Under the pieces are notes generated by a model, which worked only from the letters and a program-made list of their open reading frames with translations, had not been told where the DNA came from and searched no databases. A stretch of 25,543 nucleotides of DNA, from the IMG/VR virus record IMGVR_UViG_3300032332_001381, positions 1-25,543 of that record. One strand, written 5' to 3'. Made by a program: the position numbers and the translations under genes. Source of the stretch: a virus (Duplodnaviria; Caudoviricetes). Positions 3,694 to 25,543 of this stretch are shown here, in pieces. The first letter of the stretch is position 1. Each line of letters opens with the position of its first letter.

Positions 3694-5070
3694 ATGGCAG
3701 ATAATACGCCGAGTGCTCCTGGTATAATATATCCTAACGATTATACATTAATAAAGTTAACATTATATACAGCCACCGCACCTTTAGATTGTAGATTCAT
3801 TTTAGAAGAATTATCATATAATGAGGATATTTTTAATAATACTGCCTCAGGTTATTTGATGATTAAGGATTCACAAGGTTTTTTTAATAGTTTGAACCTA
3901 AACGGTAATGAATTCATTCAAATATCTTTTGGTAAAGGTGATAACACTACAAACATTATTGATAAGACTTTCCGTGTGTTTAATGTAATGAGGAGAATAC
4001 CTGAAATTGATGGTAATACGGAATCATATTCAATTTATTTCTGTTCTGAGGAATTATTTTTATCTGAACAATATAAAATAAGTAAATCTTATAAAAACTC
4101 CGATATAACCACAAATATCAAAGATATTTTAAACACCTACTTAAAAGTTCCCGCAAAGAAAATTTCACAGATTGATAAAACATATGGTGTTTACGATTTC
4201 ATTATTCCATATTTAAAACCTTTTGATGCTATCAACTGGTTATCCACATATGCAAGACCAGGTGAAAATAACTTTGGTGATTGGAGTATGATTGGTGCGG
4301 ATATGTTATTTTATGAGGATAAATTTGGATATAATTTTAGGTCATTACAATCTTTATATTCACAGAGACCATTGAGGCAGTATTTTTATAATCCAAAAAA
4401 TTTAAATGTTACTGACCTAGCGTACAATTTATCAAATGCATTATCATATGAAATAATGGATTCTTTTGATACGTTGGGTGCTATTAATCAAGGAGCTTTT
4501 TCCAATCGTTTATTATCAGTTGATGTATTACTAAGAAGATATAAAAAAACAGATTTTAATTACAATGATTATGTTCAAAAGGCTACAAGTTTAAATCCAT
4601 GGCCAATCATAAACAATTACAAAAATCGTTTTGGCCACCGACTATTTGAAACGCCTGAAGCTTCACTTAAATTATCTTTTTCAAATCCAAATCAAAATGA
4701 ATCTCCACTTATCGCAAGTCATCCTGGATCAGTTGCTCATGATGTTTTTGCAGAGACCTACATACCAAATAGAACCGCACAATTACCTTTGGCGAATTAT
4801 ACAAGAGTAAAAATATCTGTTCCGGGTGATCCTGCTTTAACTGCCGGTGTTGTTATTGATTTTAATTTAACATCTAAGAATCCAGATCCGGCGCAAAAAG
4901 GTCCAGATGAATATTATTCAGGCAATTATTTGGTCACTGCCGTAAGGCATTTGTTAACTCGCTTTCAATATAGAACAATTTTAGAATTGTGTAAACAAAG
5001 TTCTACCCGACCATATGCATCAATTAATAATACTTCAGACTGGAATAATGTTGTCAAAGGAAATATATAA
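3694..5070 (+). CDS. Baseplate central hub protein (gp27/VgrG-N/Mu gp44-like)
   Basis: 458 aa between gp53 and gp5. Motifs LNGNEFIQI, FYEDKFGYNFRSL, ISVPGDPALTAG and YSGNYLVTAVRH are typical of contractile-tail hubs. Confidence 0.72.
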   Translation: MADNTPSAPGIIYPNDYTLIKLTLYTATAPLDCRFILEELSYNEDIFNNTASGYLMIKDSQGFFNSLNLNGNEFIQISFGKGDNTTNIIDKTFRVFNVMRRIPEIDGNTESYSIYFCSEELFLSEQYKISKSYKNSDITTNIKDILNTYLKVPAKKISQIDKTYGVYDFIIPYLKPFDAINWLSTYARPGENNFGDWSMIGADMLFYEDKFGYNFRSLQSLYSQRPLRQYFYNPKNLNVTDLAYNLSNALSYEIMDSFDTLGAINQGAFSNRLLSVDVLLRRYKKTDFNYNDYVQKATSLNPWPIINNYKNRFGHRLFETPEASLKLSFSNPNQNESPLIASHPGSVAHDVFAETYIPNRTAQLPLANYTRVKISVPGDPALTAGVVIDFNLTSKNPDPAQKGPDEYYSGNYLVTAVRHLLTRFQYRTILELCKQSSTRPYASINNTSDWNNVVKGNI

Positions 5071-5399
5071 TGTCTAAAGTGACATCCAATTTTGCAGGTT
5101 TAAATGGATTCGTTTGGTGGGTTGGTGTTGTTAAAGACAGAGCTGATCCTTTGGGTATTGGTCGTTGTAGAGTCAGAATATTTGGCTGGCACACAGATGA
5201 TATTACTTTGATTCCTGATAACGAATTGCCTTGGGCAACACCAATGAATGCTATAAATAGTTCTAAAACTGTACAACCTTTAGAAATAAATGATTGGGTT
5301 CTTGGTTTCTTTATGGATGGTGAGAGTGGCCAATTTCCAATAATGATGGGTGTTTTACCGGGATTAAAACCAGAACAAAAAGCCGGATGGTCTATATAA
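5070..5399 (+). CDS. gp5: Stand-alone gp5 N-terminal OB-fold domain
   Basis: 109 aa. WWVGVVKDRADPLGIGRCRVRIFGWH, LPWA and WVLGFFMDGESGQFPIMMG are the classic gp5/VgrG OB-fold motifs. The ORF stops immediately after the domain. Confidence 0.88.
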   Translation: MSKVTSNFAGLNGFVWWVGVVKDRADPLGIGRCRVRIFGWHTDDITLIPDNELPWATPMNAINSSKTVQPLEINDWVLGFFMDGESGQFPIMMGVLPGLKPEQKAGWSI

Positions 5400-16743: not shown

Positions 16744-19700
16744 ATGGCTTTAAATTTCAATGTTGGTCCTTATTTTGACGATTTTGACCCATCAAAAAAC
16801 TTCCACCGCATACTTTTTAAACCAGGTTCTGCGGTTCAAGCTCGTGAATTAACACAATCTCAAACAATTCTGCAAAATCAAATATCAAATTTTGCCTCTG
16901 CGATTTATTCTACAAACACTCCAGTCTCTGGTGGTAAAGTTACAATTAATCAAAATTGTTATTATATTAAATTGAATAACACATACAATGGCGCTACAGT
17001 TACAGCATCCAATTTTAATGGTGCTATTATTCAAGATACAACGGGAACAATTCTTGCTAAAGTTCTCGCAACTGCCGAAACAACTTCAAGTGGTACAACG
17101 GTTGGCGATCCACCAACCTTAATTGTTTCTTATTTGTCTGGTAACCAATTTATCGATGGAAGTGTTATTACCACAACAGAAGGAACAACTTATTACGCTT
17201 CGGTTGCATCTTCTACTGCATCTTCTACATCTACAGGTGTATCATCTGTTGCATCTATTTCTGATGGTGTTTTTTATGTTGTCAATGGTTATTCACTTTC
17301 TGATATAACAGGAATAAAATATTCAATTGGAAATTTTGTTCAAGTTGATCCGCAAACTATTATTTTAGACAAATATGATGCGGCTCCTTCCTACCGTGTT
17401 GGTCTTCAAATAACTGAGACAATTTATGATTATATAAATGATTCTTCTTTATTGGATCCAGCAATTGGCGCATCTAATTATCAAGCTCCTGGAGCAGACC
17501 GATATGTTATTACATTAACTCTAATTACACTGCCTTTAACTTTAGGTAATGATGATGGTTTCATTGAGTTGGTTCGCATCGAAAAAGGAAACATAATTAA
17601 GCAAGTTGATGGCACCGTATATTCAACAATTGATGATTATTTTGCAAAACGTGACTATGAAACAAATGGCGATTATATTGTCGAAGATTTTAAATTAACT
17701 TCTTCAGCAAACACATCATCCACTTCAACATATGATTTGAGTGTTAGTAAAGGGATTGCGTATGTTCATGGTTACAGGGTAGAAAACCAAAGTCCAGTAA
17801 AACTTACAAACGATAGAGCGCAATCAGTTGCAAATGTAAATAATAATGCAATTTATGTGGATTATGGAAATTATTATGTTGTTGACACAGCCAATGGTGT
17901 GTTTGATATTTCTACAATGCCGCAAGTTGATTTACATTGTGTTGGTGCATCAAGTATAGTTTCTACAAATAATAAAACTTATTCTTCAACACTAGTTGGT
18001 ACCGCTTTTATGCGTTACATAACATATGTTTCAGGAACAGGAACAAATACAAAAACATACATTTATAATGCTCATATTTCAGATTTTTCTGCAAATACAC
18101 TATCTGGTAATGTTGCATCAGGTACAACAAATTCATTCACAATTAGTGATACAAATGGTTCATTCTCTGCTGTAGCCAATGCTTACTTCAATGTTACTGT
18201 AACTGTAAATACGGGAGGCCTTGTTGATATACGAAATATTACAAATTACACAACAGGAAAACAAGCTTATGTAGATAATCCATTTACTGTTACTCCAACT
18301 TCAAGTTCAACTTTCTCACTAAATTTTGAAAAATATGATGTAGATTCTATTGTTAAAACTGCTGGTTCAGGATCATATGCTTTAATTGCAAACGCAAACA
18401 TTAATTCTGCATCAGGTAAAGTTAATGGTTTAGGAACTTCCGATACAATATATTTCAGCACAACGCCGCCAGAATTAATATTCCAAGTTGGTTATCCTTA
18501 TGTTGCACAATTGACATCCACATCATACTACACACAAAGAGTATATCGTCAAAAATCTTTTACAGGTAGTACACTTACAATCCAATCAACATCAGGCAAC
18601 TCAAGTAATCCATTAAAATTTGAAGGATCAGGTACACTATCAGGTTCAGCCGCAGAACAATTGTTTATTGTTATTGACAATTCAACAGGTAGTATTTTGG
18701 ATTTTACCACATCAGGTAATACAATTTCAATTTCTTCAGATAAGACGCAAGCGACATTTACTGTTGGTGCAGGTGTTGCAACTAACAAAAATGTTACAAT
18801 TATTGCACAAGTCCAAGCAAGCAGCGCAGATTCTTCAAGTTATGTTCTAAAATCTAAGAGTTTGGTTACGGGTAACACTGCTACTGTTGGATCATTAAGT
18901 TCTATTTCAACAACAAATGTATTACACGATTTATCAAAAGGTCAAATTGCAATTACAAAAACAGGCATTTCATCTTCTGAAAAAATGTCATTGTATGTGA
19001 ATGACGTTAAACGAATTTTGAAAATTATTGATTCAGGTGTTGCAGGAACAAATCCAACAGGTACAATATCAAATTATACAGACATTACAAGTTATTTTAC
19101 ACTCGATAATGGTCAACGTGACACATATTATGACCATGCTTCAATTTCTTTGGTTCCTGGTGCACCAACACCTGTCGGTAATATTCTTGTTATTGTAGAG
19201 TATTACTCTCACACACAAGGATCATCAGGTGATGGTTATTTCAGTATTCAATCATATAATACATCAGGTTCTACTTATGGTGGTGTGTCTTCGGCCGCAG
19301 AATCTTATGCACAAATTGGAACATATACATCTAAATCTGGAACTCAATATAAATTAAGAGATTGTATTGATTTTAGGCCTTGTCGTGTAAATTCTCAAAC
19401 AGCACTTATCTGGGAATATTCAGGATCACAAACAACCACAAATGACATTGGTATATTGTTACCAAATAACTTAACAAACTTCACAGGTTTCTATCAGTAT
19501 TATTTGGGAAGAAAAGATAAATTATTATTAACTAAGGACAGAAGTTTACAAATTGTTCAAGGAACACCTTCTGTAAATCCTTTATTGCCAAATGAACCAT
19601 CAGGTTCGTTGGTAATAGCCAACTTAACACACGATCCATATACCGCTTACGTTCCAGGTGAAGCACCAGCAGGAACAACTTCAAATCTTTCAATCAATAA

Positions 19701-21918
19701 AATTATCCATAAACGTTGGATTAAGAATGATATTACTGATTTAGAAACTCGTGTTAATAACTTAGAATATTACACCTCATTGAGTATTTTAGAAAATAAA
19801 GCAAGTTCTTTACAAATTCCTGATGCTAATGGTTTGAATCGTTTTAAAAATGGCATCTTAGTTGACGATTTTTCTTCTTTTGGAACAGCAGACACAAACA
19901 ATCCAGACTATGCAATAAACATCAATGTTAGAAAAAATCAATTAGCACCACTACAGATTGTTAATAATTTCCAATTACAAAATCCCGTTGTTCTTTCAAC
20001 ACTAGGAACTTTAACCAGTACATCTGGTTACAAAATTAATAGTATCAATGGTGCTCAAACCAATCTATTTACTTTACCATACACAACAGCAAATGTAATA
20101 GTACAACCTCTTGCAAGTAGTGTGGTATCAGTAAATCCCTTTAGTGTTATTGTACAACAAGGTAACTTAGAAATAAATCCTCCAATGGATAATTGGGTTG
20201 ATAATAATCAAGCACCTGCAATTTTAATAACTGATCCTAATTTCCAAGCATATCAAGCTTCTGGTGGTGTTAATTTATTAAATTCAGGCGATTATCAAAC
20301 AATACCAGGAACTTCTGTTGCAAAAAGTGGAGATCCAAAAACTTCGGTTACTACAGCAGGTTCTTCTACAACCACATTTACACAAACAACAACTCAAACT
20401 TACGCAAGTCAGTTACAAAATACATTATCTGGATCATATAATCCAACTTCATCGACATTTGGAATAAACAATGGTTATTTGACAAACATTGCGGTATTGC
20501 CTTATATTAGACCACAACAACTCGTTATTCGTGCTTCAGGTTTATTAGTTAATTCTAATGTATCAACGTTTTTTGATGGTGTAGATGTATCCAAATACTT
20601 AACAACACCAAATATTATAGAAGTAACTGGCGTTTCTGGAACATTTAAAGCTGATGATATAATTGGTTTCTATGTTGTTAATCAATTTTATCCTCTAGCT
20701 CGTGTCATTTCGGTTTTGAAATATGCAGATACAACAAAAGTTCGTTTATATGTTGCAGATATTGTTACTGCTCCAGACACAATAGGAACCACATCAATAA
20801 GAAATGCTTTCTTTGATGTGAATGGAAATTATGCTTCTTCAACAGCATCAGGTACTATTCCTTCCAGTGGGGTAATAACTACAGGTGCAAGTGGCACAAT
20901 TAGTGGTGTTGGTGGTGGATGGGCTAATACATTAAATGGTAATGCAACTACACATTATTTCATGACTCCAATTGTTCAAGGTTATTCAACTTTATTAAAT
21001 CAATATGGTGTTTGGGGCGATTCAACCAATAGTACATCTTTTAGTTGGACAGCTCCAATAACAATTGCAAATGCAGGAACATATACTATTGAAGTTGGTG
21101 CTTCTGGTTCTGCAACATTCTATGCGAATGGTGCAAGTATTGGCACATCTTTAACAAATACACCGGCGTCAACAAAAACATTCACATATACTGTTGCTAC
21201 AGGTCCAGCAACAGTATATATTGGATGGACAGCAACAAGTTCAGGTACAACAACATCTGGTGTTGCTATGACAATTAAAAATTCTGCCGGCACAATTGTT
21301 GCTTCTTCACTTAATCCTCCAGTAACATATACAAATGCAGGAACATCAGTAATCATGCCGACTGGTGGAGAATGGTTTGTTGGAGCTACACAATTACGAT
21401 TAAATCCATCTACAGCTTCAACTGTTTCAAACTTTTATGTTGGTGCAACAATAAATATAAAATCTAAATATGTTTATTCTATAGAACAATCAGCAACATA
21501 TGTTCCTCCAGCACCAGCACCATCTGGTGGTGGAGGAAATATTGCGAGTGGAGGTGGTAGCTGTTGTGTTATTGCAACTGCTCTAACAGATGGTGGTGAT
21601 TGGGATCCAGAACAAAAAAATCAATTGGTAAAATGGTCAATAAATACTTTAGATAAGTATTTCTTAGGTGAAAGATTGCATAGAGGTTATCATGTTGTTG
21701 CATCCACTGTATTGCCTTTCTTCTTTGGTAAAGATAGTAAAACAGCAAAAAAATACGCTAAATGGTCGTTCACTAATGCAACAAATATGATTCAAGGTAA
21801 AAAGTTTAATCCAATTTCTATACCAAATAGTGCAATGTGGATAACTGTGATGTTGGTGTCAGGTCTAGTTGTAAGCAAGGAATATGCTGAAGCTAAATGG
21901 AAATCATTATACAAATAA
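16744..21918 (+). CDS. Giant virion structural protein, VrlC/DUF4815-like, N-terminal part with a C-terminal CCVIATA domain
   Basis: 1724 aa. NVGPYFDDFD..KNFHRILFKPG.AVQARELTQ.Q, APGADRY, RDYETNGDY, LDNGQRD..YD, LRDCIDFRP, RVNNLEYYTSLS, NRFKNGILVDDF and PYIRPQ..FFDGVDV. Confidence 0.85.
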   Translation: MALNFNVGPYFDDFDPSKNFHRILFKPGSAVQARELTQSQTILQNQISNFASAIYSTNTPVSGGKVTINQNCYYIKLNNTYNGATVTASNFNGAIIQDTTGTILAKVLATAETTSSGTTVGDPPTLIVSYLSGNQFIDGSVITTTEGTTYYASVASSTASSTSTGVSSVASISDGVFYVVNGYSLSDITGIKYSIGNFVQVDPQTIILDKYDAAPSYRVGLQITETIYDYINDSSLLDPAIGASNYQAPGADRYVITLTLITLPLTLGNDDGFIELVRIEKGNIIKQVDGTVYSTIDDYFAKRDYETNGDYIVEDFKLTSSANTSSTSTYDLSVSKGIAYVHGYRVENQSPVKLTNDRAQSVANVNNNAIYVDYGNYYVVDTANGVFDISTMPQVDLHCVGASSIVSTNNKTYSSTLVGTAFMRYITYVSGTGTNTKTYIYNAHISDFSANTLSGNVASGTTNSFTISDTNGSFSAVANAYFNVTVTVNTGGLVDIRNITNYTTGKQAYVDNPFTVTPTSSSTFSLNFEKYDVDSIVKTAGSGSYALIANANINSASGKVNGLGTSDTIYFSTTPPELIFQVGYPYVAQLTSTSYYTQRVYRQKSFTGSTLTIQSTSGNSSNPLKFEGSGTLSGSAAEQLFIVIDNSTGSILDFTTSGNTISISSDKTQATFTVGAGVATNKNVTIIAQVQASSADSSSYVLKSKSLVTGNTATVGSLSSISTTNVLHDLSKGQIAITKTGISSSEKMSLYVNDVKRILKIIDSGVAGTNPTGTISNYTDITSYFTLDNGQRDTYYDHASISLVPGAPTPVGNILVIVEYYSHTQGSSGDGYFSIQSYNTSGSTYGGVSSAAESYAQIGTYTSKSGTQYKLRDCIDFRPCRVNSQTALIWEYSGSQTTTNDIGILLPNNLTNFTGFYQYYLGRKDKLLLTKDRSLQIVQGTPSVNPLLPNEPSGSLVIANLTHDPYTAYVPGEAPAGTTSNLSINKIIHKRWIKNDITDLETRVNNLEYYTSLSILENKASSLQIPDANGLNRFKNGILVDDFSSFGTADTNNPDYAININVRKNQLAPLQIVNNFQLQNPVVLSTLGTLTSTSGYKINSINGAQTNLFTLPYTTANVIVQPLASSVVSVNPFSVIVQQGNLEINPPMDNWVDNNQAPAILITDPNFQAYQASGGVNLLNSGDYQTIPGTSVAKSGDPKTSVTTAGSSTTTFTQTTTQTYASQLQNTLSGSYNPTSSTFGINNGYLTNIAVLPYIRPQQLVIRASGLLVNSNVSTFFDGVDVSKYLTTPNIIEVTGVSGTFKADDIIGFYVVNQFYPLARVISVLKYADTTKVRLYVADIVTAPDTIGTTSIRNAFFDVNGNYASSTASGTIPSSGVITTGASGTISGVGGGWANTLNGNATTHYFMTPIVQGYSTLLNQYGVWGDSTNSTSFSWTAPITIANAGTYTIEVGASGSATFYANGASIGTSLTNTPASTKTFTYTVATGPATVYIGWTATSSGTTTSGVAMTIKNSAGTIVASSLNPPVTYTNAGTSVIMPTGGEWFVGATQLRLNPSTASTVSNFYVGATINIKSKYVYSIEQSATYVPPAPAPSGGGGNIASGGGSCCVIATALTDGGDWDPEQKNQLVKWSINTLDKYFLGERLHRGYHVVASTVLPFFFGKDSKTAKKYAKWSFTNATNMIQGKKFNPISIPNSAMWITVMLVSGLVVSKEYAEAKWKSLYK

Positions 21919-21930
21919 TCGGAAAAATAA

Positions 21931-24165
21931 ATGGCAACACAATATAGATCAAGTCTCTACGAATATACTGCAACAATTACAGCATACGATCCTGTAACTA
22001 AAGTTGTAACATTAGATACTCCGGTAAATTTATCAATGGGAGTAAATACATCGATGGGTGGTGATGTTACTTCAAATTATTCAATCACCGGTAATTTAGC
22101 AAAAATTCATTCGTCTGTTCAAGATGGAACAAAATTAGCAAGACCTACTTCAGATGAATCTGGAAATTTTGTTGCTTTATTTAATGTTCCTTCTACAAAA
22201 TTTCAGACTGGTAACAGAGTATTTCGTGTTGACAATAGAACCTTACCAAATGATCCAACAACAGCAACAACATGGGCAGAAGGTACATTTAGTGCTTCTG
22301 GACTATCAACAACCTCACAACAATTGGATTTTTCTGCTTCAATAGATTCTTCTAAAAATGTATTTACACAAGTAAATCAAAAAACAGGATTAGTAAGCAC
22401 AGTTACCACAACCACCTCATCTACTATAGTTGCTCCTACACCAGTTTCTCCTCCAATTACATCTCGTGGTGGTGGATCCGGAAGTATGGATCCTGTTGCA
22501 CAAACTTTTATGGTTTCTGATGATATTTATCCTAATGGTATATTTTTATATTCAATTAAACTTTTCTTCCAAAAGAAGCCAACAACAAATATTCCTATAA
22601 GTGTTTGGGTTTTGCCTACAGTGAATGGTTATCCTGGCGGCCTGGCATTAGATTATTCTAAAGTAAGTTTGTTGCCAGAAAATGTAAAAGTTTCAGATAC
22701 GCCTCATTATTTGGATCCAAATACGTATACAGAATTTGTTTTTAAATCTCCAGTTTATATTCAATCTGGTGTTTTATATTCTTTTGTAGTTAAATCCAGT
22801 TCTCTTGATTATGTTTTATATTATGGACAACAAAATAAAACAGCTATACCATCTACAGCTAAAGCTAAACCAACAGATCCAGATCCAACAAATCCAACAA
22901 AAATTGGAGCTGCCCCTTATATTGGATCATTGTTTGAATCACAAAATGGTATTACATGGACCGCCGATCAAACTAAAGATATGATGTTTATGATTGATAA
23001 ATGTGTATTTTCAACAACGGCCGGCGCAGTTGTGTTTACTGTTCCTAAAGGTTTACCGTTTAGAAAAATGGGCTCTCAGGATATTTTAAATAAAGTAGAC
23101 GCAAATAGTACACCACAATTATTAGGAAACTATTCTAATGATAGAGTATATGACGCTTTCAATATAACAACAACAGACTTGATGCCAACAGGAACAAATA
23201 TTAATTATGCTTATTCATCAATATTAAATGCTGGAAATGTACCGACAGGACAACAATCGGTTACTCCTGGAAGATTTGGAAGTCCTTTATCTGAAGATAT
23301 TTTATTGGCTGACGGAAATGGCCAAAGAACTTTATTGAAATCTTCTAGTAGTTCGTTCTCTTTGTATGCAACAATGTCCACAAATGATCCTAACGTGTCT
23401 CCAATCATCTCAGATGATGGTGTTTCATTATACACAGTTTCTTATGTTATCAACAACATGGGAATTGGTAATAATGTAATTGCAATCACTAATCCAGGTT
23501 ATGGTTATAATGTAAATGCAACTACAATTTCAGTTTCTAGTCCAGATGTTGGTTCTAATTCTGCGGTATTAGGTTTTACTGCAAATGCAGGTGGTGCAAT
23601 TACATCTGTTTATACTATTTCTTCTGGTTCAGGTTACATAACCAATCCAACAATTACCATATCAAATCCATCAACAAGAGGCGGAAATGCAAATGCAGTA
23701 GTTACTGTAACAGGAGAAACTTCATCTAAAGGTGGTAATTCTTATGCAAAATATTTTACCAAAAAGGTTGTATTGGCACCAGGAAATGATTCTGGTGATT
23801 TGCGTGTATTCTATACTGCATATAAACCATTAGGAACAGCTGTATATGTTTATTATAAAATTCTAAATTCTTTAGATACTGCAACATTTGAATCTGGAAA
23901 CTGGCAGTTAATGACTACTTTGCAAAATCCAAACACATTTTCAACTTCAAGAAACGATTTGTATGAATATGAATGTGCTCCAGGTGTATTTGCAAGTAAT
24001 CAAGCAAACAACAGTATAAGTTATACTAGTTCAGCGACAGGCCAAACATACAATTCTTTTATTCAATTTGCAATTAAAGTAGTACTGTCAACAAACGATA
24101 ATACTGTTGTACCATTCTTAACTGATATTCGTGCATTAGCTTTACCAGCAGGAACAGGAATTTAA
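21931..24165 (+). CDS. VrlC/DUF4815-like protein, C-terminal part encoded as a separate gene
   Basis: 744 aa with SD-like GGA upstream. TSDESG.F...F.VP..F.TG.RVFR, DPVAQTF, F.F.SPVY, GSLFESQNG.TWT, NVSPII, AKYFTKKV.L and F..FAIKVVL...VP...DIRALAL are the motifs that normally end these proteins. Confidence 0.82.
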   Translation: MATQYRSSLYEYTATITAYDPVTKVVTLDTPVNLSMGVNTSMGGDVTSNYSITGNLAKIHSSVQDGTKLARPTSDESGNFVALFNVPSTKFQTGNRVFRVDNRTLPNDPTTATTWAEGTFSASGLSTTSQQLDFSASIDSSKNVFTQVNQKTGLVSTVTTTTSSTIVAPTPVSPPITSRGGGSGSMDPVAQTFMVSDDIYPNGIFLYSIKLFFQKKPTTNIPISVWVLPTVNGYPGGLALDYSKVSLLPENVKVSDTPHYLDPNTYTEFVFKSPVYIQSGVLYSFVVKSSSLDYVLYYGQQNKTAIPSTAKAKPTDPDPTNPTKIGAAPYIGSLFESQNGITWTADQTKDMMFMIDKCVFSTTAGAVVFTVPKGLPFRKMGSQDILNKVDANSTPQLLGNYSNDRVYDAFNITTTDLMPTGTNINYAYSSILNAGNVPTGQQSVTPGRFGSPLSEDILLADGNGQRTLLKSSSSSFSLYATMSTNDPNVSPIISDDGVSLYTVSYVINNMGIGNNVIAITNPGYGYNVNATTISVSSPDVGSNSAVLGFTANAGGAITSVYTISSGSGYITNPTITISNPSTRGGNANAVVTVTGETSSKGGNSYAKYFTKKVVLAPGNDSGDLRVFYTAYKPLGTAVYVYYKILNSLDTATFESGNWQLMTTLQNPNTFSTSRNDLYEYECAPGVFASNQANNSISYTSSATGQTYNSFIQFAIKVVLSTNDNTVVPFLTDIRALALPAGTGI

Positions 24166-24389: not shown

Positions 24390-25543
24390 ATGGCAAATAC
24401 AGTCAATATTTTAGGTTACGCTAACACATTTGGTGATTGGATAGTTGCAACCAATGCGGATACGAATGAAATTAATTCGATAGGCAAATACGATTGGACA
24501 AAAGATTCTGGAACTTTAACACTAAATGGATCAGGTACCAGTTTAACTGTTGGAAATAATGTTATTATTCAAGGGCAATTACAAGTTACAGGTACAAGTT
24601 CTTCTGCAACTATAGACAATAACTTAACTGTTGGTAAGCAAGTATATTTTACTAACACAGTCCAAAGTTTAACTGCAAGTGGAATAATCTACGCGAACGG
24701 CACAGTTTATGCAGGAAATACAGGAACTAGTTTAGCGGTAGCAAATAACACAATCATCGGTGGAACTTTAACTGTTGCAGGTTCAACAGTTATTTCAAAT
24801 ACAATTAATGTACTTCTTGCAGCAACACTTCAAAACACTTTAAGTGTTGCAAAAAACACCATAATTACAGCTAATCTAAATGTAACAGATTTGGTTCAGA
24901 CAAATAATATTGAAGCCAACACAAGTGTATTGACTAATGTGTTACAAGCTAATACAAGTGTATTAACCAATACAGTACAAGCCAATACAAGTGTTGCAAC
25001 TGATGTAATAAGGGCCAATACATTACTAGCCAATACTAGTATTACAACAAATATGTTACAATCCAATACAAGTGTATTGACTAATGTGTTACAAGCAAAT
25101 GCTAGTGTATTAACCAGTGCATTGCAATCTAATAACAGTATACTAACCAGTGCATTGCAATCTAATAACAGTATACTAACCAGTACGTTACAATCTAATA
25201 CAAGTGTTAATACCACTACAATTTCGGTAACAGGAACTAGTTTTACTGATACAGTACAAGCAAATACTAGTGTTGCAACTAATGTAATAAGAGCAAACAC
25301 CGTATTAGCAAACACAAGTGTATTAACCGGTACGTTACAAGCTAATACTAGTGTATTGACTAATGCGGTACAAGCAAATACTAGTGTATTGACTGGTACG
25401 TTACAAGCTAATACTAGTGTATTGACTGGTACGTTACAAGCTAATACAAGTGTATTGACTGGTACGTTACAAGCTAATACAAGTGTATTAACCAGTACGT
25501 TACAAGCAAATACTAGTGTTGCAACTAATGTAATAAGAGCGAA
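24390..25543 (+). CDS. Probable tail fibre protein, 5' part, running off the window (absent from the ORF track)
   Basis: ATG at 24390 after AAAGG. Reads MANTVNILGYANTFGDWIVATN..., with an NTF..W...TN fibre-attachment-like motif. The frame is open to the window end and contains 11-aa repeats. Confidence 0.8.
   Translation, partial: MANTVNILGYANTFGDWIVATNADTNEINSIGKYDWTKDSGTLTLNGSGTSLTVGNNVIIQGQLQVTGTSSSATIDNNLTVGKQVYFTNTVQSLTASGIIYANGTVYAGNTGTSLAVANNTIIGGTLTVAGSTVISNTINVLLAATLQNTLSVAKNTIITANLNVTDLVQTNNIEANTSVLTNVLQANTSVLTNTVQANTSVATDVIRANTLLANTSITTNMLQSNTSVLTNVLQANASVLTSALQSNNSILTSALQSNNSILTSTLQSNTSVNTTTISVTGTSFTDTVQANTSVATNVIRANTVLANTSVLTGTLQANTSVLTNAVQANTSVLTGTLQANTSVLTGTLQANTSVLTGTLQANTSVLTSTLQANTSVATNVIRA
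24912..25543 (+). repeat. Coding tandem repeat, 33-bp unit (consensus peptide VLTxxLQANTS), with periodic 48-bp variants
   Basis: Units such as ACTGGTACGTTACAAGCTAATACTAGTGTATTG are repeated almost identically at about 25392-25490. Many differences between units are synonymous. Confidence 0.93.

Follow-up and report, generated by a model that had tools for sequence, protein, structure and literature searches.

A swappable tail module, predicted helical and possibly self-removing, at the break of a phage DUF4815 gene

What becomes of a protein module that, together with its own stop codon, sits in the middle of a phage structural gene? This question is raised by a 25,543-nucleotide (nt) stretch of viral DNA (Caudoviricetes; positions 1 to 25,543 of the IMG/VR record IMGVR_UViG_3300032332_001381, a virus record about 15% complete; hereafter the window), in which an open reading frame (ORF) of 1724 amino acids (aa), ORF1 (16744..21918; this and the other parts of the split gene given below are on the + strand), ends in a module of 118 aa plus stop (21562..21918) that we call the CCV module. 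ORF1 is identified as the N-terminal part of a virion protein (DUF4815/phrog_358) by its matches to Pfam DUF4815 (E-value (E) 2.4e-58), to phrog_358 (profile positions 5-1276) and to a chain of PDB entry 9euf, and the 744-aa C-terminal piece of the same protein is encoded by the next gene, ORF2 (21931..24165). The answer we favour, tentatively and by analogy with other domains found at the same site, is that the CCV module, a swappable tail, may cut itself off immediately upstream of an invariant cysteine, Cys1608 (21565..21567), and that the N- and C-terminal pieces of the host protein would then reassemble non-covalently. What is new here is an uncatalogued CFI-like phage module family in a swappable end-cap system, its link to the bacterial CFI-box-CTERM domain and its partner gene.

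The module and the gene it breaks

The DUF4815/phrog_358 gene is broken in two in the window, and the module and stop codon sit in a loop of the encoded protein. The phrog_358 profile is picked up again by ORF2 at position 1276, and in alignments with continuous relatives a single variable loop separates the last host residues of ORF1 from the first of ORF2. The stretch at 21385..21480 forms the upstream half of a conserved segment, which in unsplit relatives (L044, L052, L087, L088 and L106) runs on into the ORF2 start. Between these borders lie a Pro/Gly linker (21505..21561), the module itself and a 12-nt spacer (21919..21930) that ends at the restart ATG and contains GGA, a motif resembling a ribosome-binding site. 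The linker is common to every module type at this site, and a variant differing in length by 12 nt occurs in run X2, which belongs to the same study as X1, the possible source run. Similar spacers occur in most relatives split at this site, and no sigma-70 promoter or terminator was detected in that of the window. ORF2 begins directly in host sequence without an extra N-terminal domain, with 9 residues before the aligned host segment. The stop codon of ORF1 is real, as the same stop recurs in relatives and is spanned unchanged by a contig of run X2, and for removal of the module at the RNA level we found neither an Rfam match nor a contig joint skipping only the module.

The module contains LGERLHRGYHVV (21664-21699), a hydrophobic stretch, AMWITVMLVSGLVV (21832-21873), and a basic tail, KWKSLYK (21895-21915). 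It had no match in Pfam, NCBIfam or PHROG, and sequence searches of the PDB returned nothing useful. It is nevertheless no chance sequence, because 24 proteins among 604 candidates matched it at E<=1e-3 (22 with DUF4815, one being the window's own), a profile search with the module matched 173 clusters (50% identity), the best 150 of them being listed, and the ratio of non-synonymous to synonymous polymorphism (pN/pS) of the module was 0.06 in comparison to each of two relatives, L001 and L003. The CCV module is thus under strong purifying selection.

Conservation was counted in an alignment of 117 module sequences with identity down to about 21%, in which Cys1608, Trp1631, Tyr1649 and Gly1707 were invariant and Thr1612 was present in 112. 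Trp1631 is followed by a G-E-x-x-x-R-G-Y segment that ends in Tyr1649 (21634..21690), where the Gly before Tyr was found in 116 sequences and Arg or Lys in 115. Cys1608, the candidate nucleophile, lies just before predicted helix 1 (model helix 11-18), which begins at the next residue, and the eight residues upstream of it include on average five Gly or Ser, indicative of a flexible linker. The preceding position, Cys1607 (21562..21564), is variable (Gly in 53, Cys in 38 and Ser in 10 of the 117).

The AlphaFold2 model built from the 117 sequences (mean predicted local distance difference test score 91.8; predicted template modelling score 0.83) was all-helical, with six helices and zero strands. 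Helix 5 (21811..21870; model helix 92-111), which bears the invariant Gly1707, is predicted to lie inside this compact high-confidence model and has a Kyte-Doolittle maximum of 1.57, and a hydropathy of at least 1.6 was reached by 22 of 52 long members in comparison to 5 of 65 short ones, the short subfamily having charged residues in this helix. A conserved membrane anchor is therefore unlikely, and the model suggests that helix 5 is more likely a packing helix. Foldseek retrieved four viral models (probability 0.82-1.00; template modelling score 0.54-0.61; none at E<=0.001), one of them a DUF4815 protein and another of the same length as gp49 of the cultured Roseobacter phage CRP-1. Among 48,161 PDB chains the best fold match to this deep model reached a Z of 4.3 (root-mean-square deviation 4.3 over 85 aligned residues), Foldseek gave no PDB match at E<=0.001, and fold searches with a shallower model (local distance difference score 79) gave none either. 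NEL-type ligase domains, which headed the PDB fold results at Z of about 4, were rejected as they stand at background level for helical bundles.

These results bear on most claims of the initial annotation of this locus, which had been made from the sequence alone. Its coordinates all hold, the first Cys being residue 1607 at 21562 and the module 118 aa long. The abrupt compositional switch that it described at the junction is borne out by a fall in T+S+N+G from 41% to 25% and a rise in K+W+F from 7% to 21%, and its expectation of a helical domain distinct from Hint agrees with the model. It had put the scissile bond between Ser and the first Cys and asked about conservation of that residue; since Gly, Cys or Ser stands at that position in most members, the first Cys is the variable one, conservation belongs to the second (117/117), and the residue before Cys1608 is Cys here and Gly, Cys or Ser elsewhere, so that a Ser-Cys bond is not supported as the site of cleavage, while the cleavage or acyl transfer that it proposed stays plausible. 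The suggested tether to the membrane is disfavoured by the properties of helix 5, and the module is not the end of the protein as had been assumed, as the DUF4815 gene continues in ORF2.

Exchange of the module and its relatives

A profile of the ORF2 start was used to collect viral loci, and the best 80 of 95 were sorted by script motifs into 30 continuous genes, 11 with CCV, 17 with ICT (another module type), 9 with a Hint-like domain, 2 with a Peptidase_S74 domain (S74; PF13884), 10 with a short tail and 1 unscorable; after removal of duplicates these numbered 21, 8, 10, 7, 1, 10 and 1, respectively. The S74 domain scored 25.8 bits in comparison to a Pfam cut-off of 22. Pfam matches of the Hint-like domains lay below cut-off (E 6e-4 to 8e-3), and their initial Cys-Phe and T-x-x-H were invariant in 7 of 7 distinct copies, with no His-Asn end. 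The initial annotation had listed an empty site, Hint and its own domain as possible occupants in DUF4815 homologues, and all three were found, in addition to ICT and S74. In seven distinct loci (L060:3265-3930 and six others) the Hint-like domain is followed by a conserved helical tail of about 95 aa of no known family, an architecture that recalls Hedgehog proteins, in which Hint is joined to a helical adduct-recognition region. This tail was considered as a Cys-less copy of the module, which was unsupported (E 0.12-0.42).

The CCV module resembles these Hint-like domains in that it follows the same linker and starts with Cys. It differs in being all-alpha (predicted) rather than all-beta, in lacking T-x-x-H and in having no Pfam Hint match at E<=1, just as it has another motif than S74 and no PF13884 match at E<=1.

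A tree of the downstream piece was built for 56 of the 80 loci and the window (57 rows; L107, duplicates and pieces shorter than 400 aa were dropped). Occupancy of the site required 16 state changes on this host-gene tree (minimum 5; shuffled mean 32.8), of which CCV accounted for 5, and CCV formed a single clade in 0 of 200 bootstrap trees. Two sister pairs (L090/L096 and L050/L051) each consist of a CCV and a module-free locus, and L044 (3794-4120) is a continuous gene nested among split ICT loci, in which the Pro/Gly linker runs straight into the second half, an apparent re-fusion through module loss. Module-free sisters, L044 and the tree together demonstrate that the split needs no module, that modules are exchanged and that the split is reversible. 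The module appears dispensable, being missing in close relatives, and the discrete removable unit proposed by the initial annotation is supported by this exchange and absence across the site. In some module-free split forms (L049, L066, L096 and L110) the upstream gene ends in short Trp/Asp-rich tails, and the loop in question holds, in several continuous forms, a G-D-G-D peptide together with a short helix-like insert.

The module was also found away from this site. Among 27 viral loci fetched with the module profile, 9 had it at the site of the window, 16 at a second site in the same gene just before D-P-x-A-Q, one (L021) in a glycine-rich gene that it splits and one (L026) at the end of an unrelated 647-aa protein; L134 has a glycine-rich gene with the module at the end of each half. 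The box-containing module was C-terminal in 133 of 134 matches, and single-linkage clustering sorted 142 carriers into 37 clusters, of which 25 had one member. The module is therefore carried by unrelated phage proteins independently of cargo. Two cultured phages have relatives: gp49 of CRP-1 matches the module weakly (E 0.7) with the motif visible, and gene 028 of Synechococcus phage SynMITS9220M01 has an ICT module. No stand-alone module was found among 12 candidates of 68-217 aa, and one pattern scan of GTDB genomes gave 33 stretches of which none was confirmed as a module relative, both being weak tests.

Several further features accompany these carriers. An amphipathic Gly/Val/Leu-rich peptide directly precedes the module or the S74 domain in P0016, P0020, P0036, P0061 and L104 (3461-3943), and would become a free C-terminus if the module were removed. 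Genes of 58-129 aa with a Leu-rich pattern alike by eye lie behind modules (L135:4855-5034, L320, L310 and L005:5347-5736), and such small Leu-rich genes stand behind modules in several unrelated contexts, including gp48 of CRP-1. ICT modules additionally end proteins of about 300 aa with Asn-Cys repeats (L307, L311, L313, L323 and others), and the start of one ICT-ended protein (L292) resembles a 109-aa ORF of the window (5070-5399).

Comparison with 122 bacterial CFI-box-CTERM copies, chosen by a pattern of the box, indicated that CCV is a probable remote relative of that domain, below its family cut-off. By hhalign the two aligned over 54 colinear columns from the Cys onwards (probability 40%; pairwise E 2.9e-4), with a score of 25.1 in comparison to at most 14.6 in 30 column shuffles, and removal of the box raised E to 0.24. 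Shared features include the C-terminal position after a Gly-rich linker, a C-x-I-A-T-A box, present in the window at 21565 as C-V-I-A-T-A with Val replacing Phe, and L-G-E/R and Tyr in register. The bacterial copies have LRxFRD and YYxxSP where CCV has W-x4-L and R-G-Y in weak register, and CCV differs further in that its carriers are phage proteins. Against NF041770 the window protein was unmatched at E<=10, and 4 of the 117 members matched at E<=1 (best 13.3 bits; cut-off 40). The likeness to CFI-box-CTERM noted in the initial annotation thus stands as a remote relationship and not as membership of that family. In the open-access literature, supplements aside, we found no paper on the CCV module or on CFI-box-CTERM (NF041770).

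The ICT module is probably homologous to CCV, judging from its hhalign match (probability 38%; E 3.3e-4). The residue matching Cys1608 in 62 distinct ICT copies was Lys in 40, Ser in 10, Arg in 10, Thr in 1 and Cys in 1.

Modules are in addition often followed by a partner gene whose family comprises 94 proteins, mostly of 133-149 aa, with invariant Cys, Arg and Tyr-Tyr. The partner had no family match above cut-off, matched CFI by hhalign (probability 29-37%) and had no direct match to CCV or ICT, to which it is connected only through the CFI profile. Searches of the ESM Atlas returned unnamed viral clusters at 0.88-0.90, and the rows obtained for the partner were weaker. In all 20 partner-fetched loci the partner came immediately after a CCV or ICT module (gap -1 to 3 nt), and among 46 metagenome loci, from which 6 duplicates and 4 unscorable loci were removed, it followed 23 of 26 distinct modules at other sites in comparison to 0 of 10 at the site of the window. 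There is no partner gene at the window's module, and five related virus records (four incomplete) contained no second CCV copy and no partner, the partner search being without a positive control. Examples of the partner (L011:7373-7822, L021:7360-7776 and L135:4001-4834) show a CFI-like helical domain with an optional Cys/His-rich head of 36 residues, and in L135 the partner is itself fused to an ICT module. In SynMITS9220M01 (L339:5675-9109) genes 028-030 are consecutively a carrier with ICT, a short partner and a Gly-rich next gene.

Fate of the module

Hint and S74 families cut themselves off, and S74 is a C-terminal intramolecular chaperone of phage virion proteins. Cleavage at the linker-Cys bond is the most likely fate of the CCV module because the recognisable domains sharing its site are of such self-removing types and because an invariant Cys follows a flexible linker. 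An N-to-S acyl shift at the bond between the linker and Cys1608 would produce a thioester. Attack by water or by a small nucleophile would then release the module, and the upstream piece would be left with a new Pro/Gly C-terminus, either bare or capped, in a loop at the virion surface. Hint-like copies without a His-Asn end fit cleavage at the front only, and the C-terminal position and the 37 carrier clusters are as expected of a cargo-independent device. Non-covalent reassembly of the halves is suggested by the 10 of 80 loci that are split with only a short tail, some of them sisters of CCV loci.

Several observations weigh against self-removal and keep our preference for it below conviction. 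No His, Asp or Asn was invariant in the 117 sequences, and no all-helical domain is known to us to undergo this kind of self-cleavage. The invariant Cys of ICT lies three residues later than Cys1608, and if CCV and ICT do the same job, there is therefore no plain shift at residue 1. The partner gene is unexplained by self-cleavage alone, and sharing a site with self-cleaving domains may mean only that the site tolerates any tail.

A broader proposal, which we regard as rather unlikely, is that CCV, ICT, the partner and bacterial CFI-box-CTERM might form one all-helical Cys autoprocessing superfamily unrelated to Hint, interchangeable in phages with Hedgehog-like Hint cassettes, that would cut and chemically cap the C-terminus made by a virion-gene split at a surface loop. 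We found no open-access paper that brings Hint, phage virions, adducts and Hedgehog together.

If the module does cut itself off, CCV would represent a small autoprocessing domain that is all-helical and whose fold has yet to be solved, and it might serve as a new tool for tagging or ligating proteins; it would also open the catalogued bacterial domain CFI-box-CTERM to experiment for the first time. Whatever the chemistry, splitting of this predicted baseplate gene, its capping with one or another of at least four module types and its re-fusion have happened many times over, and such turnover suggests that aquatic myophages vary at their host-contact end in a way not yet described. The relatives in two cultured phages make the question testable.

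Alternatively, the module may stay uncut as a folded cap or adaptor whose Cys/Trp/Tyr pocket binds a cofactor, metal or partner protein and acts in assembly or infection, a possibility we consider doubtful but serious. The offset between the CCV and ICT cysteines, about one helical turn, suits a shared pocket over a scissile bond, and both the partner directly behind the module and the additional Cys (96/117) and His (95/117) common in the family are consistent with such a role. The module of the window, however, lacks both additional residues, no partner is adjacent at its site, close relatives are module-free, and those domains of known family that share its site are of types that remove themselves.

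It is improbable that the module instead acts in trans, its thioester linking the first piece to the N-terminal end of the ORF2 product in the manner of a one-sided split intein. Both ends do derive from one loop, and since L044 is continuous among split ICT loci, a joined chain is structurally acceptable. ORF2, however, carries no intein-like piece (no C-intein was found at its start, with only 9 residues before the aligned host segment), splits without a module are common, and many carriers, such as L026 and gp49 of CRP-1, have no recognisable second half. The second residues also overlap among types (Thr/Ala with CCV, Thr/Ser/Pro with ICT, Ser/Ala/Gly/Thr/Pro with Hint and Ser/Ala/Thr with no module). 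The fractured genes described by Dassa et al. (2009; PMC2677866) are similar in that a conserved phage gene lies in two pieces, which in some cases are separated by a free-standing gene; as portrayed there, these have split-intein pieces on the halves, DNA-enzyme hosts and a free-standing endonuclease gene between. In contrast, the host here is structural, no endonuclease gene was found in the 12-nt gap between the halves, and the middle gene, where present in relatives, is a small helical CFI-like protein that is absent at the site of the window.

Equally improbable is a sorting signal, in which the module would tether the protein to a membrane for processing or lipidation at Cys by a host or phage protease, as proposed for tails of the CTERM type. 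In sorting tails of the MYXO-CTERM type, the carrier is exported and has a signal peptide, and the transmembrane helix is conserved. The probable remote homology to CFI-box-CTERM and the hydrophobic helix and basic tail of the long subfamily would suit this idea, whereas a crude scan found a hydrophobic N-terminus in 0 of 148 carriers, hydropathy of the module helix is not conserved, being weak in the window and in the short subfamily, and the helix lies within the compact model. No membrane protease was recognised among the window ORFs (11 family-scanned) of this incomplete record.

Least probable of all is a near-neutral cassette spreading by recombination at Gly-coding linkers with its own stop and restart and no benefit to the phage, for although the state changes on the tree, including loss and re-fusion, and the two split sites in one gene, with more in Gly-rich genes, would fit, the low pN/pS and residues invariant at such low identity argue against it, and neither an endonuclease among the window ORFs nor an Rfam element was found.

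Host protein and neighbouring genes

The protein encoded by ORF1 and ORF2 is predicted from sequence matches to be a baseplate protein. The window contains a T4-like tail and baseplate cluster in which neighbouring ORFs match PHROG baseplate wedge, and DUF4815 is a family that we take to be VrlC. VrlC has been located at the baseplate (PMC4621102). ORF1 also matched a 1152-aa DUF4815 chain of phage 812 (PDB 9euf; E 4e-25) in its N-terminal region (best stretch residues 916-1156), and this match has no counterpart of the split site or of the CCV module. PDB 9euf, 9tic and others are baseplate and arm structures of phage 812 (PMC13433997), and this chain is probably the trimeric tripod protein, an identification of our own as the passages concerned give no chain name.

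The second split site used by relatives is continuous in the window (22462..22500), and it falls at the very position where module and partner interrupt the gene in 16 relatives. It consists of a Gly/Ser linker with an in-frame Met (22486) before DPVAQ, which may be a re-fusion relic or an internal start. Downstream of ORF2, a fibre-like ORF with tandem repeats of about 11 residues occupies 24390-25541 and continues past the end of the window.

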